Shown piece after piece: positions 3,024 to 57,983 of a stretch of DNA of 64,000 bases. The stretch lies in the NCBI RefSeq assembly GCF_009931435.1, contig NZ_CP043414.1. The stretch is one strand, 5' to 3'. Position 1 is the stretch's first letter. The number at the start of each line of letters is the position of its first letter. Source of the DNA: Escherichia coli. GTDB taxonomy: Bacteria; Pseudomonadota; Gammaproteobacteria; Enterobacterales; Enterobacteriaceae. The notes under the pieces were generated by a model, which was not told the origin of the DNA, ran no database searches, and saw only the letters and a program-made list of their open reading frames with translations. A program made the position numbers and the translations under genes.

Positions 3024-3977
3024 ATGATCGAAGTAAAACACCTGAAAACGCTACAAGCGTTGCGGAACTGCGGCTCACTCGCAGCCGCTGCGGCGACGTT
3101 GCATCAAACGCAATCCGCCCTGTCTCACCAGTTTAGCGATCTGGAACAACGCCTTGGCTTCCGGCTATTTGTGCGTAAAAGCCAGCCGCTTCGGTTTACA
3201 CCGCAGGGAGAAATCCTGTTGCAACTGGCGAATCAGGTGCTGCCGCAAATCAGCCAGGCACTGCAAGCCTGCAATGAACCGCAGCAGACGCGCCTGCGCA
3301 TTGCCATTGAGTGCCATAGCTGTATTCAGTGGCTGACGCCCGCGTTAGAAAATTTCCATAAGAACTGGCCGCAGGTGGAGATGGATTTTAAATCGGGCGT
3401 GACGTTTGACCCGCAGCCCGCGTTGCAGCAGGGTGAGCTGGATCTGGTGATGACCTCCGATATTCTGCCACGCAGTGGCCTGCATTATTCGCCGATGTTC
3501 GATTATGAAGTGCGTCTGGTGTTGGCACCTGACCATCCACTGGCGACAAAAACGCGAATCACGCCGGAAGATCTCGCCAGCGAGACGCTGTTAATTTATC
3601 CGGTGCAGCGTAGCCGACTGGATGTCTGGCGGCATTTTCTTCAGCCCGCAGGCGTTAGCCCGTCACTGAAAAGCGTCGATAACACCTTGTTGTTGATTCA
3701 GATGGTTGCCGCACGGATGGGCATCGCTGCGCTACCGCACTGGGTGGTGGAGAGTTTTGAACGCCAGGGTCTGGTGGTCACCAAAACCCTGGGCGAAGGC
3801 TTGTGGAGCCGACTGTACGCCGCCGTGCGCGATGGCGAGCAGCGTCAGCCGATTACAGAAGCGTTTATTCGCTCAGCGCGCAATCACGCCTGCGATCATC
3901 TGCCGTTTGTGAAGAGCGCGGAGCGACCCACTTACGATGCACCCACAGTGAGGCCAGGATCACCAGCGCGCCTGTAA
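3024..3977 (+). CDS. metR: LysR-family regulator of methionine biosynthesis
   Basis: 317 aa, N-terminus [36 protein letters not shown] (HTH of MetR); ATG at 3024. Confidence 0.95.
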
Positions 3978-4839: not shown

Positions 4840-5640
4840 TTACGATAAATAGAGTTTACGCAGATAATGCGGCACCGCATCGTCGGCATTAGTACCAATC
4901 ACTTCCAGCTCCGGATGCAGATCTTTCAGACGCTGGTGCGCACTGCCCATAATGCAGCCTTTACCTGCCATCGACAGCATTTCGGCGTCGTTCATCCCGT
5001 CACCAAAGGCAATACAATCTTTCAGACTGTAGCCCAGTTTCTTCGCCACCGCTTCCAGGGCATGGCCTTTTGAAACGCCGCCCGCCATCACTTCCAGACA
5101 AGTTAGGGTAGAGAAGCTGACGTTGACGCGATCGCCCCAACGAGCGTTGATTGCCTGTTCCAGCGGCAGCAGTTGTTCATGAGAATCACAGGTGAAGAAC
5201 ACTTTGCTGACGCCTTCCGGATCCAGTAATCCTGGCTCATACAGCGCATATTTGAACACCGCTTCTTTAAAAAAGCGCATCTCTTCCGGGCGGTGGCGAT
5301 TCATAAACCATTCGTCGTCGCGATAAACGTTAGTAATGATGTCCGGGTTGTCGTTGACCACGCCAAACAGATCGCTGGCAATGTCGCGATCCAGGTTATG
5401 AGCAAAAATCAGATTGCCATCCAGATCATGAACGCGCGCGCCATTGGAGGTAATCATGTAAGACTTAATCTCCAGATTATCGCGAATTTGCCCCACATCA
5501 ACGTGGTGGCGACCGGTCGCAAACACAAAGTTAATGCCGCGCGCGGTGAGGAGCTTCAGAGTTTCTTTGGCGTAAGGGGATAACGTATGGTCGGGAGAAA
5601 GTAACGTGCCATCTAAATCAGACGCAACAACCTGGTACAT
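4840..5640 (-). CDS. yigL: HAD-family sugar/pyridoxal phosphate phosphatase
   Basis: Start trimmed to ATG at 5640 (MYQVVASDLDGTLL, HAD motif DxDGT); 266 aa. The longer ORF upstream would run into pldB. Confidence 0.9.
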   Translation of the reverse strand: MYQVVASDLDGTLLSPDHTLSPYAKETLKLLTARGINFVFATGRHHVDVGQIRDNLEIKSYMITSNGARVHDLDGNLIFAHNLDRDIASDLFGVVNDNPDIITNVYRDDEWFMNRHRPEEMRFFKEAVFKYALYEPGLLDPEGVSKVFFTCDSHEQLLPLEQAINARWGDRVNVSFSTLTCLEVMAGGVSKGHALEAVAKKLGYSLKDCIAFGDGMNDAEMLSMAGKGCIMGSAHQRLKDLHPELEVIGTNADDAVPHYLRKLYLS

Positions 5641-5647
5641 AAGAAAT

Positions 5648-6670
5648 TTAAACCTCTGTAGAGCGGTTTCCGCTGGGTGAGTTATGCCTGTTGAAAAAAT
5701 CAACAATGGCGTGGAGCGCGACTGAGCGCATTGCGTCCTTTTCAAAAAGGATCTCATGGTACGCACCTTTAATTACCAGCGGTCGTCCCCCTTCGACAGG
5801 ATGGCCCGCAGCGGTGCGGAGTTCACAAAAACGGTCGTGCATGCGGTTATCCACCACGCGTTCCTCTTCAGCCTGCAAGAGAAGCGTTGGCGTGGCGTCA
5901 TCACCCGCACCGGCTAACACCTGTTCGCCAGCCAGAATACTTTCGCGTACCCAATGGTAGGTCGGCCCACCGACGCGAATCGTTGGGTCATCAGCATAGA
6001 AGCGTAAGTTACGTCGATATCGCTGTCTGCTGTGGGTCAGTACGTTGATAGCAAACGGCAACGCGCGCCAGCGCCCGGTGCCTATTGCATAGCCATCACG
6101 GAAACGTGGATGTGCTTCGGCCCAGTTAAGGAGCTGCCGCGCCATAAATGACGGCATACGAATCACGATCCCAAACATTGGCGCAGTTAGCGCAATGGCG
6201 TCACATACACCTGGATGGCGTTGCAGAAATAACGTGGAGATCGCACCGCCCATCGAATGTGCCAGTATATAGCGCTTACGCCACGGACCGGGCTGGACCT
6301 CCTGTTGCCAGAATGCCGCCAGATCATCAACATAATCATTAAAGCGATTAACATGCCCAAGATGCGGATCGGCTAACAGGCGACCGGAACGTCCCTGCCC
6401 GCGATGGTCGATGATTAAGACATCAAACCCCAAATGGAACAGGTCGTAGGCCAGTTCCGCATATTTTACGTAGCTCTCAATACGCCCCGGGCAGATGACT
6501 ATCACCCGGTCATGGTGCTGTGCGCGAAAACGGACAAAGCGCACCGGAATGTCATCTACACCAGTAAACTCTGCTTCATCACGCTGACGCCAGAAATCAG
6601 TCAGCGGTCCCATGGTAAAAGCAGCAAACGCGTTTTCTCTTGTTTCCCAGTCTTTTTGCTGCTGAAACAT
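5648..6670 (-). CDS. pldB: lysophospholipase L2
   Basis: 340 aa alpha/beta hydrolase with HSMGG nucleophile elbow; conserved position upstream of yigL. Confidence 0.93.
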   Translation of the reverse strand: MFQQQKDWETRENAFAAFTMGPLTDFWRQRDEAEFTGVDDIPVRFVRFRAQHHDRVIVICPGRIESYVKYAELAYDLFHLGFDVLIIDHRGQGRSGRLLADPHLGHVNRFNDYVDDLAAFWQQEVQPGPWRKRYILAHSMGGAISTLFLQRHPGVCDAIALTAPMFGIVIRMPSFMARQLLNWAEAHPRFRDGYAIGTGRWRALPFAINVLTHSRQRYRRNLRFYADDPTIRVGGPTYHWVRESILAGEQVLAGAGDDATPTLLLQAEEERVVDNRMHDRFCELRTAAGHPVEGGRPLVIKGAYHEILFEKDAMRSVALHAIVDFFNRHNSPSGNRSTEV

Positions 6671-31789: not shown

Positions 31790-31998
31790 ATAAAAAAACG
31801 CCTGCTCTTATTACGGAGCAGGCGTTAAAACAGGTCTGTATGACAACAAGTGGGTGCTTCACTCAACGTTGTGTCCATGGTGTCTGATGAGGCATAAGCG
31901 ACATCTGTCAGTGGACGATAAGCACCGTAAACGGCTCTGCGTCATTCCGGAGTTTATGAGGCACTAAGGCGAACATAAGAGATGGAATGAGCATCTAC
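31790..31998 (-). ncRNA. glmZ: GlmZ small regulatory RNA
   Basis: Minus strand reads GUAGAUGCUCAUUCCAUCUCUUAUGUUCGCCUUAGUGCC ... ending in hairpin AAGAGCAGGCGUUUUUUU, matching the remembered GlmZ sequence; located between hemY and aslA as in K-12. Confidence 0.8.
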
Positions 31999-35631: not shown

Positions 35632-35708
35632 TGGTCGGCGAGAGAGGATTCGAACCTCCGACCCACTGGTCCCAAACCAGTTGCGCTACCAAGCTGCGCT
35701 ACTCGCCG
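35632..35708 (-). tRNA. proM: tRNA-Pro (anticodon UGG)
   Basis: Reverse complement gives CGGCGAGUAGCGCAGCUUGG...GGUCGGAGGUUCGAAUCCUCUCUCGCCGACCA with cloverleaf and CCA end. Confidence 0.9.
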
Positions 35709-35750
35709 AAATACTGCTTTTTGAATTTTTAGTTCAATTCTTTAAAGTCG

Positions 35751-35837
35751 TGGTGCGAGGGGGGGGACTTGAACCCCCACGTCCGTAAGGACACTAACAC
35801 CTGAAGCTAGCGCGTCTACCAATTCCGCCACCTTCGC
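35751..35837 (-). tRNA. leuT: tRNA-Leu (anticodon CAG)
   Basis: 87-nt class II tRNA; reverse complement begins GCGAAGGUGGCGGAAUUGGUAGACGCG and ends ...CCUCGCACCA. Confidence 0.9.
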
Positions 35838-35857
35838 ATTGTCACAACTTCTAATAA

Positions 35858-35934
35858 TGGGGTGGCTAATGGGATTCGAACCCACGACAACTGGAATCAC
35901 AATCCAGGGCTCTACCAACTGAGCTATAGCCACC
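35858..35934 (-). tRNA. hisR: tRNA-His (anticodon GUG)
   Basis: Reverse complement GGUGGCUAUAGCUCAGUUGGUAGAGCCCUGGAUUGUGAUUCC...GCCACCCCA, with the extra 5' G typical of tRNA-His. Confidence 0.9.
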
Positions 35935-35991
35935 ACTACAAATCTTGTTACGCGGTATTACTACCACCGCAGCTCAAGCGCCGGGACTAAA

Positions 35992-36068
<77 letters not shown>

Positions 36069-40918: not shown

Positions 40919-42165
40919 GCCCGCCTACGCCAGAGTAAAAATACGCCACAACAAAGAGAAAAATAGACGATATAGGTTGCCATGTAGGCCTGCGCCGCGC
41001 CCAGTGCGCCATGCGCAGGGATTAGCCAGTGGGCAAATACCATCAATAAAGTGAACTGGCTGACTTCCGCCAGAATATAAAACCGCAGTGACGCTTTGGC
41101 GATCACCAGATAACCAAAGACATAAGCGCCCACTTTTAATACATCGCCCACCAACTGCCAGGCAAAGAGATCGCGCATAGCGGTAAATTTATTCGACAAC
41201 AGCAGCCAGATAGCAAAATCACGCAGCAACCAGACGGTAAAACTCGCCACAGCTACCGCCGGTAAGACGAATTTCAACGATTTAACCACTTCCCGGGTGA
41301 TATCGCGCTTTTCCGTTAGCCGCGACAACGTGGGCAGTAAATATACGCTGAACGATGCCGTAATAAATTGCAGGTAGGCATCGGAAATACTGCTCACCCC
41401 TTGCCAGATACCCACTTCATCCCAGCTATAATGCGCCGCCAACAGTTTACGCATCATAATGTACGCAACGGGCAAGGTCACCGACGTAATCAACGCCATG
41501 AGCGTAAATTTGCTCAACTGCCCTGCCAGGCCGTTATCCCAACTGGGTTTCAGATAGCTTAACGGGATGGCACCACGTTTGATCAACATGATGACGGCAG
41601 GAATCACCACCAACGCCGGAATCAGCGCCAGCCCCAGCAATGCCCCTTCATAACCACCCAAACGGTAACTGACATAATAAGCGATAACGCCAATCAAGCT
41701 GCCGACAATCAGCGATAACGCATTACCAGCGGCATCGCGAAAGCCTTTCATCAACGCCAGTAACAGGTTGCCCCAGGCGATCCCCATTTGCACCAGCGCC
41801 ACTAAACGCACCAGCCCCACATAGTCGGTATTACCAAACAATCCCTGGCTAATTGGCGCTGCCGCCAGCACAAAAACCAGCGCCATCAGCGTAGAGAAAC
41901 CAAGCACCATCGCTGATGAAGTGCCGACCACGCGGCGCAGCTGCTGCGGATTATCATGGTACTGGGCAACGTATTTGGTTACGCCATTAAAGATGCCCGC
42001 CCCGGCAAGCACGCCGAGCACGGTAATCAACTGGCGGAAATTTGCCGCCAGCCCAAGCCCCGCCGGACCAAATGACACCGCCAGCAACTTACCGACCAGT
42101 AACCCTGCACCAATCTTGACCAGTGTACTGGCCGCCGTCCATAAGGACGCTTTTGCCAACGACAT
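40915..42165 (-). CDS. wzxE: ECA lipid III flippase
   Basis: 416 aa polytopic membrane protein (Wzx-type). Confidence 0.93.
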
Positions 42166-52352: not shown

Positions 52353-52682
52353 TTACGCCAGGTTAGCGTCGAGGAACTCTTTCAACTGACCTTTAGACAG
52401 TGCGCCCACTTTGGTTGCCGCCACTTCACCGTTTTTGAACAGCAGCAGAGTCGGGATACCACGGATGCCATATTTCGGCGCAGTGCCAGGGTTTTGATCG
52501 ATGTTCAGTTTTGCAACGGTCAGTTTGCCCTGATATTCGTCAGCGATTTCATCCAGAATCGGGGCGATCATTTTGCACGGACCGCACCACTCTGCCCAGA
52601 AATCAACGAGGATCGCCCCGTCCGCTTTGAGTACATCCGTGTCAAAACTGTCGTCAGTCAGGTGAATAATTTTATCGCTCAT
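52353..52682 (-). CDS. trxA: thioredoxin 1
   Basis: Start trimmed to ATG at 52682 ([39 protein letters not shown]), 109 aa with WCGPC active site. Confidence 0.97.
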
Positions 52683-52812
52683 ATATAACTCCACAGGAAT
52701 AAGCCTGGCGTGTTGGTTTCGTTGTTGGTGTAACATTAACCAACTAAAGGTTGACTTTATTTCACCGGATACGCTTTCGTAAAGCAATAGTAAGCTGATA
52801 TTCTACCACACT

Positions 52813-57767: not shown

Positions 57768-57983
57768 AGGTGTATTGCTCAATCTTCGAACGGGGGGAGG
57801 ATTGTAGCAGAATCGCATTTGAATGTGACCGAGTGAAAACCGCTAACCGGATGGCTGCGGATGTTTAAATCAGAGAGGGAAGGCCGAAACCAGAGTTCAT
57901 CATGAATCCATTAGACTTAGAAAATATCGGGTCGTAACGTTGTGTTATTACTTTTTCAGAGTTTACTAAGGAGAGGTTTACTC

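Follow-up and report, generated by a model that had tools for sequence, protein, structure and literature searches.

The question raised by this locus is whether the end of pldB carries the RNA leader through which the small RNA SgrS controls the next gene, yigL, and how much of the conservation of that leader is accounted for by SgrS pairing. SgrS reportedly activates yigL via a processed 'pldB-yigL mRNA in Salmonella and E. coli, a result ascribed to Papenfort, Sun, Miyakoshi, Vanderpool and Vogel in 2013 (Cell 153:426). The DNA analyzed here, called the window, is a stretch of 64,000 nucleotides from Escherichia coli, and positions are counted from its first letter.

In the published work, pldB and yigL are dicistronic, RNase E processing within pldB yields the 'pldB-yigL RNA, and SgrS pairs with this RNA and blocks its further decay by RNase E in a translation-independent manner (PMC4021124, PMC4098024). 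An increase in yigL mRNA and YigL protein that depends on SgrS and Hfq has been demonstrated under glucose-phosphate stress in both E. coli and Salmonella (PMC4021124, PMC4098024, 10.1101/221978), and activation in E. coli was seen on a fragment from -191 to +50 (Bobrovskyy et al., 10.1101/221978). That study ranked yigL as a high-priority SgrS target, although SgrS binding to the yigL fragment was barely detectable in vitro (10.1101/221978). Because of this weak binding, SgrS must depend on Hfq or on other factors to pair in vivo.

Arrangement and identity of the gene pair

Both genes lie on the minus strand of the window, a point on which the first-pass annotation was silent. The pldB coding sequence (lysophospholipase L2; 5648..6670, minus strand), delimited by the ORF list, NCBIfam and the homologous RefSeq region, has 340 codons and a TAA stop at 5650-5648. 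Its product matches the NCBIfam equivalog model NF008019 over the full length, at residues 1-335, with 659.6 bits (cut-off 362). The yigL coding sequence (sugar/pyridoxal-phosphate phosphatase of the HAD-IIB Cof type; 4840..5640, minus strand) runs from an ATG at 5640-5638 to a stop at 4842-4840. YigL is an NF008213 equivalog (552.1 bits against a cut-off of 386), and its match covers residues 1-265 of the 266 positions in the model. This supports ATG 5640 as the start of yigL; the ATG showed no variation among 38 aligned species.

It had been claimed that yigL starts 7 bp past pldB and that its leader is embedded in pldB coding sequence. Direct reading agreed on both counts: the ATG at 5640 is separated from the stop at 5650-5648 by the 7-nt spacer AUUUCUU (5641..5647, minus strand), and the Shine-Dalgarno sequence AGAGG (5653..5657, minus strand) is contained in pldB codons 338-339 (ACA GAG GUU). 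The AGG of this sequence and the U that follows were invariant in the 38 species. The right-hand edge of 5766 given in the first-pass annotation is merely the first GTG of a longer mechanical ORF; the functional leader in published E. coli work reaches -191, which is window position 5831. A consensus scan found no terminator-like site between pldB and yigL.

RefSeq shows the identical gene pair, 7-nt gap and yigL start in K-12 and in the closest genome, and the pair with its 7-nt gap is annotated in 5,425 of 5,426 complete E. coli genomes. Over the locus, DNA identity was 97.3% to K-12 and 98.9% to E. coli strain Z0117EC0005, values that assign the window to E. coli sensu stricto. Escherichia albertii, whose YigL is 99% identical, was considered as the species of the window and ruled out, its DNA identity being 91.7% as against 97-99% for E. 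coli.

Some other features of the window were recorded in passing. The metR gene (3024-3977 on the plus strand) and a bioP-equivalent ORF, which runs on the minus strand and ends at 3865, are convergent and share about 113 bp at their 3' ends (3865-3977); the RefSeq annotation of a related genome has this overlap as well. Rfam matches at gathering score comprised the GlmZ sRNA (218 bits, 31792-31998, minus strand), a TrxA 5' UTR thermometer (78.8 bits, 52653-52752, minus strand) and a cluster of four tRNA genes (35635-36068, minus strand).

The SgrS site at the end of pldB

SgrS has been described to bind pldB +935-955, occluding an RNase E site at +948-955, and an RNase E cross-linking peak in pathogenic E. 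coli overlaps the SgrS site (PMC5286369, Waters et al., summarizing Papenfort et al. 2013). The site coordinates used here are those of this secondary source. When mapped to the window, they fall on ACGCAAUGCGCUCAGUCGCGC (5716..5736, minus strand), with the reported RNase E site at 5723..5716 (minus strand). This sequence is identical to that of E. coli K-12. The first-pass annotation had made its reading depend on a complementary sequence in the 3' region of pldB and had proposed a comparison with the published pairing region; that comparison leads to 5736..5716, where the sequence is present.

Only scattered, mostly synonymous differences separate this leader from that of K-12, one of them being ATT versus ATC at 11 nt downstream of the site. 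Of 5425 E. coli genomes, 3761 carried the identical 50-mer around the site. In two genomes with variant 50-mers that were inspected, the ST131 change lay outside the site and the other was C955U, at its last base, which turns a G-C pair into a G-U pair. The end of pldB in the window is thus the SgrS site before yigL that is already published and known: genes, gene order, coordinates (pldB +935-955) and SgrS core (nt 168-187) are the same as in the published system, and the site itself is not different.

Predicted pairing with SgrS

The SgrS sequence used for pairing matched E. coli genomes at the sgrT locus at 100%. An Rfam scan did not find SgrS within the 64-kb window. Of 5426 E. coli genomes, 5399 carried sgrS, and sgrR-sgrS/sgrT was found in the closest genome, so that the genome of origin, judged by its relatives, presumably carries sgrS as well. 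The sgrS allele of this nearest relative is divergent, which distinguishes it from the published system, but its pairing core is unchanged: the 26-nt core CATCATGTGTGACTGAGTATTGGTGT, which covers every paired nucleotide, is intact. More generally, two sgrS classes were seen in E. coli, one of 3230 genomes at least 99% identical to K-12 and one of about 2,157 genomes only 80-90% identical. They differ in the sgrT end, the flanks of the pairing region and the terminator, and the 26-nt core is identical between them (Z0117EC0005 sgrS compared with that of K-12).

SgrS nt 163-188 read CAUCAUGUGUGACUGAGUAUUGGUGU. Within them, nt 168-179 (GUGUGACUGAGU) form 12 contiguous predicted pairs, three of them G-U, with pldB +944-955 (5727..5716, minus strand; -87 to -76 from the yigL ATG), and nt 184-187 are predicted to pair with ACGC at pldB +935-938 (5736-5733, minus strand). 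RNAduplex, given full-length SgrS and the whole leader, proposed a duplex of over 200 nt that had no meaning. With 40-nt windows, and accessibility left out of account, it rated long interactions rich in loops at other places in pldB-yigL as better than the true site or next to it. For this reason, an interaction score that sums the duplex energy and the opening energies of both RNAs was adopted, and the leader was scanned from -191 to +50. All ten of the best interactions fell on the SgrS site. The best one joined pldB +935-956 to SgrS 167-188, with a total of -8.3 kcal/mol and a duplex energy of -24.1 kcal/mol; the published interval was recovered without having been used as input. The site is partly sequestered in predicted local structure, at an opening cost of 10.7 kcal/mol. 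The proposal that the SgrS pairing arrangement is conserved here is therefore borne out by the published interval, by identity with K-12 and by the best predicted interaction.

Complementarity taken alone carries little information: a degenerate 12-mer complementary to SgrS 168-179 had 3 matches against 4.1 expected in 64 kb, which is the chance level. The weight given to the site consequently rests on its positional identity with a characterized site and on the comparative data. Two other 12-mers in the window could pair, G-U pairs included, with SgrS nt 168-179 (41973-41984, plus strand; 57823-57834, minus strand), and given these same counts they are no evidence for additional targets. A second stretch, ACGCCRATRYTY, was seen in several genera (loci L013, L023, L041, L043, L046, L048 and L050), with 12-13 contiguous pairs to SgrS nt 176-187, about 240-255 nt upstream of yigL and so beyond the -191 processing site. 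Its homologue in the window is ACGCCAACGCTT (5881-5893, minus strand; pldB about +778-790), where the pairing is interrupted (7 + 4 bp). This second stretch probably reflects chance or shared ancestry.

Distribution of the site and constraint on its codons

The comparative sample comprised 80 Enterobacterales yigL loci. In 79 of them a long pldB-like ORF ends just before yigL; the remaining one (L062) has too little upstream sequence to be scored. The seed complement occurred in 43 of the 80 species, all of them with Arg-Ser-Val-Ala at PldB 315-318, and the genera concerned include Escherichia, Salmonella, Citrobacter, Enterobacter, Klebsiella, Raoultella, Kluyvera, Kosakonia, Lelliottia and Pluralibacter. 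It was absent at the homologous position in 37 of the 80 species (L043, L046-L068, L070-L084; L062 not scored), from genera that include Buttiauxella, Pectobacterium, Dickeya, Serratia, Yersinia, Hafnia, Erwinia and Pantoea. The homologous codons in species lacking the site are CGN GCC GAR GCN, with Ala-Glu/Gln in PldB in place of Ser-Val, and pldB and yigL are still adjacent in these genera. A search of the latter with the E. coli SgrS core, rather than with cognate sgrS sequences, gave just chance-level runs of 7-10 bp. According to the literature Serratia, Yersinia and Pectobacterium carry sgrS, and one review lists SgrS-yigL regulation for Yersinia by extrapolation (PMC6232918). In this sample, the SgrS site appears to be confined to a subclade of Enterobacteriaceae. 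The site and the constrained block around it may have arisen in that one subclade, by replacement of Ala-Glu/Gln with Ser-Val in PldB and by fixation of the CTT codon.

Among the 43 species, the normalized synonymous entropy of pldB had a gene mean of 0.67. The lowest values were those of codons 305-318, whose mean of 0.19 ranked first of 298 14-codon windows, and the 15 lowest 7-codon windows all begin at codons 301 to 315. Four site variants were recorded, TCA>TCG (5 species), GCG>GCA (5 species), GTC>GTT (1 species) and CGC>CGA (1 species). The first three change A-U to G-U, G-U to A-U and G-C to G-U, respectively, and keep the pairing with SgrS; CGC>CGA is the sole pair-breaking variant and leaves a helix of 10 bp. 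Variation is free (entropy 1.58) at the third position of Ala313, which belongs to the internal loop of the duplex. This pattern points to RNA-level selection on the SgrS site beyond protein-coding constraint. The present analysis supports the arrangement, the site sequence, the predicted pairing and the RNA-level evolutionary constraint.

The 7-nt gap and translational coupling

Over the scored Enterobacterales loci (79 of 80), the gap between pldB and yigL ranged from 7 to 109 nt. It is 7 nt in Escherichia only, 8-15 nt in Citrobacter and Salmonella, and 21-43 nt in most other Enterobacteriaceae. In most genera, pldB stops with TGA or TAA just past '...RHN', leaving a gap of 21-43 nt that in many cases holds an intergenic hairpin. 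Citrobacter and Salmonella pldB end with a TAG that overlaps the Shine-Dalgarno sequence, for a gap of about 15 nt. In Escherichia, TCA occupies the ancestral stop position and PldB is longer by 10 residues (SPSGNRSTEV), whose codons span a small hairpin and also the Shine-Dalgarno sequence. On this comparison, the 7-nt gap is a derived state of Escherichia that resulted from loss of the ancestral stop codon.

The small hairpin, AGCGG-AAA-CCGCU (5662..5674, minus strand), was present in the MFE fold. In Escherichia it falls within the 10 codons by which pldB is extended at its C-terminal end, and in most genera its place is intergenic. Inspection by eye showed an equivalent inverted repeat, rich in G+C but of other sequences, in Citrobacter, Salmonella, Kluyvera, Klebsiella and further genera.

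The spacing could also be read as serving mainly translational coupling, with ribosomes that end at the pldB UAA re-initiating on yigL and the SgrS complementarity being incidental. A stop and a start 7 nt apart, with the Shine-Dalgarno sequence inside pldB codons, form a geometry typical of coupled genes, and the chance-level frequency of the seed complement in 64 kb would agree with such a reading. The spacing is not conserved, however, being 7 nt solely in Escherichia and 8-109 nt elsewhere, and the SgrS site sits in the most synonymously constrained block of pldB. Moreover, SgrS activation was translation-independent in published work (PMC4021124, 10.1101/221978). We regard coupling as the main reason for the arrangement as rather improbable. 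Coupling on the full-length dicistron is plausible in itself and is compatible with SgrS control of the processed RNA.

Origin of the yigL transcript

The first-pass annotation left two origins for yigL translation, a pldB-yigL transcript or a promoter inside pldB. The former agrees with the dicistron of the literature (PMC4021124, PMC4098024). For the latter nothing was found: no sigma-70-like site was detected on the minus strand between 4600 and 6900, in a scan that was insensitive and also missed the real pldB promoter.

If yigL were transcribed mainly from its own promoter inside pldB, its leader would be a primary 5' UTR instead of a processing product. An RpoN-holoenzyme gSELEX peak at 4,008,248 in the 'pldB > yigL' interval of K-12 (PMC8743547) speaks for such a promoter, and a sigma-54-like element, TGGCACG-N4-TTTCT (5611..5596 of the window), appears to sit under this peak. 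As a -24/-12 element (5596-5611, minus strand), it agrees with the consensus at 11 of 12 specified positions and coincides with yigL codons 10-15, which encode HAD motif-I. The coincidence of peak and element depends on an offset between two K-12 genome versions taken as 1,977 bp. The element is located at yigL +30 to +45, past the start codon, and hence a transcript starting from it could not encode YigL. In addition, reviews describe a dicistronic pldB-yigL mRNA of which the SgrS-responsive species is a processed RNA (PMC4021124, PMC4098024). An internal promoter as the main source of yigL mRNA is accordingly considered very unlikely, and the leader is treated below as a product of processing.

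The motif scan found a GUUUU of RN|WUU type at -190 (5828..5832, minus strand), which coincides with the -191 end of the fragment used in the E. coli study (10.1101/221978). This motif is a candidate for the RNase E processing site that would free the leader from pldB translation. RN|WUU motifs were also found at -59/-58.

A larger constrained block around the site

One observation stands against reading the leader as an SgrS site and nothing else: the block of synonymous constraint, at about 5716-5757 (minus strand), starts some 30 nt upstream of the published duplex, and this upstream constraint is unexplained by SgrS pairing alone. In the 43 species, synonymous entropy was 0 for six of the seven codons 306-312. 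Directly 5' of the SgrS site lies a conserved hairpin, UCCUUU-UUGA-AAAGGA (5736..5751, minus strand; pldB +920-935, codons 307-312), which was present in both the MFE and the consensus folds. Across 75 distinct sequences from the 80 loci, 92.4% of its cells were paired; one pair switches from U-A to G-C in 16 sequences and is broken in 21. In the consensus fold, UGAG (codons 305-306) pairs with CUCA of the seed target and GGCGC with GCGCU, both helices enclosing the hairpin. Helices that sequester the site would fit the opening cost of 10.7 kcal/mol and the weak binding in vitro (10.1101/221978). Covariation for these enclosing helices was almost nil, the columns being nearly all invariant in 38 species.

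A further hairpin, GUUGA-UUUUU-UCAAC (5690..5704, minus strand; pldB +967-981), is predicted downstream of the SgrS site and ahead of the ribosome-binding site of yigL, with an RNase E-type RN|WUU motif in its 5' arm and loop according to the motif scan. One of its pairs exchanges C-G and U-A in 38 species (17 and 11, with 4 U-G and 6 broken), the exchange being seen in 11-14 sequences, and over all 80 loci just 68.8% of cells were paired. The whole leader did not fold better than shuffled sequences (z = -1.15), and no described cis-regulatory family matched 5400-6000 in a permissive Rfam scan. The hairpins and helices of this section are leads, not findings.

It might be argued that conservation at 5716-5751 does not stem from SgrS pairing at all, but from mRNA structure, from an Hfq/RNase E docking element or from codon constraint near the PldB catalytic histidine, the SgrS match being secondary. 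Codons 305-312 are constrained though they do not pair with SgrS, the consensus fold draws UGAG/CUCA and GGCGC/GCGCU around the hairpin, and the register of the hairpin is kept in Serratia and Yersinia, both of which lack the SgrS site. Set against these points, all but one of the substitutions in the site preserve SgrS pairing (A<->G opposite U, C>U opposite G), and the adjacent third position of Ala313 is free (entropy 1.58). The site also matches experimentally defined coordinates (PMC5286369), and covariation is almost absent from the invariant columns of the putative enclosing structure. Conservation independent of SgrS is thus judged unlikely. SgrS pairing and a structure or docking element could also act together, as the two readings are compatible.

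A tentative reading of this kind, possible but doubtful, is that the SgrS site is only part of a larger, undescribed cis element made up of codons 305-318, the hairpin and the sequestering helices. SgrS control may require such an element, a module of one Enterobacteriaceae subclade, as a structural gate or as a docking structure for Hfq or RNase E. This element would fit the barely detectable binding in vitro despite high-priority regulation in vivo.

Proposed mechanism and relation to known systems

Taken together, we consider with high confidence that this segment is the canonical SgrS-responsive yigL leader within the 3' end of pldB and acts by the published mechanism. Co-transcription, RNase E processing, stabilization and physiology are taken from the literature, and the exact RNase E positions are putative. 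The pldB and yigL genes would be co-transcribed, and an RNase E cut inside pldB, at about -190, would give a 'pldB-yigL RNA whose pldB part is no longer translated. In cells lacking SgrS, the RNase E site at pldB +948-955 would be the point from which this RNA is degraded further. During glucose-phosphate stress, SgrS would act together with Hfq and pair through its core nt 168-187 with pldB +935-955 (window 5736..5716). The duplex would cover the cleavage site, stabilize the yigL message and raise the level of the YigL phosphatase, and more YigL would allow accumulated sugar phosphates to be dephosphorylated and exported. The initial proposal that SgrS pairs in the 3' region of pldB and stabilizes a processed yigL mRNA matches the published descriptions (PMC5286369, PMC4021124, PMC4098024).

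The system resembles that of RydC and cfa mRNA (Frohlich et al. 2013), in which an Hfq-dependent sRNA also pairs upstream of the ribosome-binding site, blocks RNase E and stabilizes the mRNA in a translation-independent way (PMC4021124, PMC4098024). The RydC site belongs to the true 5' UTR of an mRNA that is a primary transcript, whereas the SgrS-yigL site is in an upstream coding sequence and becomes available only after processing. SgrS represses ptsG and manXYZ with the same conserved core that it uses on yigL. Pairing at or near the ribosome-binding sites of ptsG and manXYZ leads to repression and degradation, in contrast to yigL, where pairing 76-96 nt upstream of the start codon leads to stabilization.

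The pldB-yigL pair is a textbook case of activation by an sRNA that blocks RNase E within the coding sequence of the gene upstream. For the strain studied here, an intact site says only that it very probably keeps a normal glucose-phosphate stress response. The clade-limited site, the derived 7-nt gap and the larger constrained block possibly go beyond what has been published. The clade limit is a caution against assuming SgrS-yigL regulation in Yersinia or Serratia, and the comparative results could help to direct mutational studies of the reason for which yigL, despite weak binding in vitro, is a high-priority target of SgrS.
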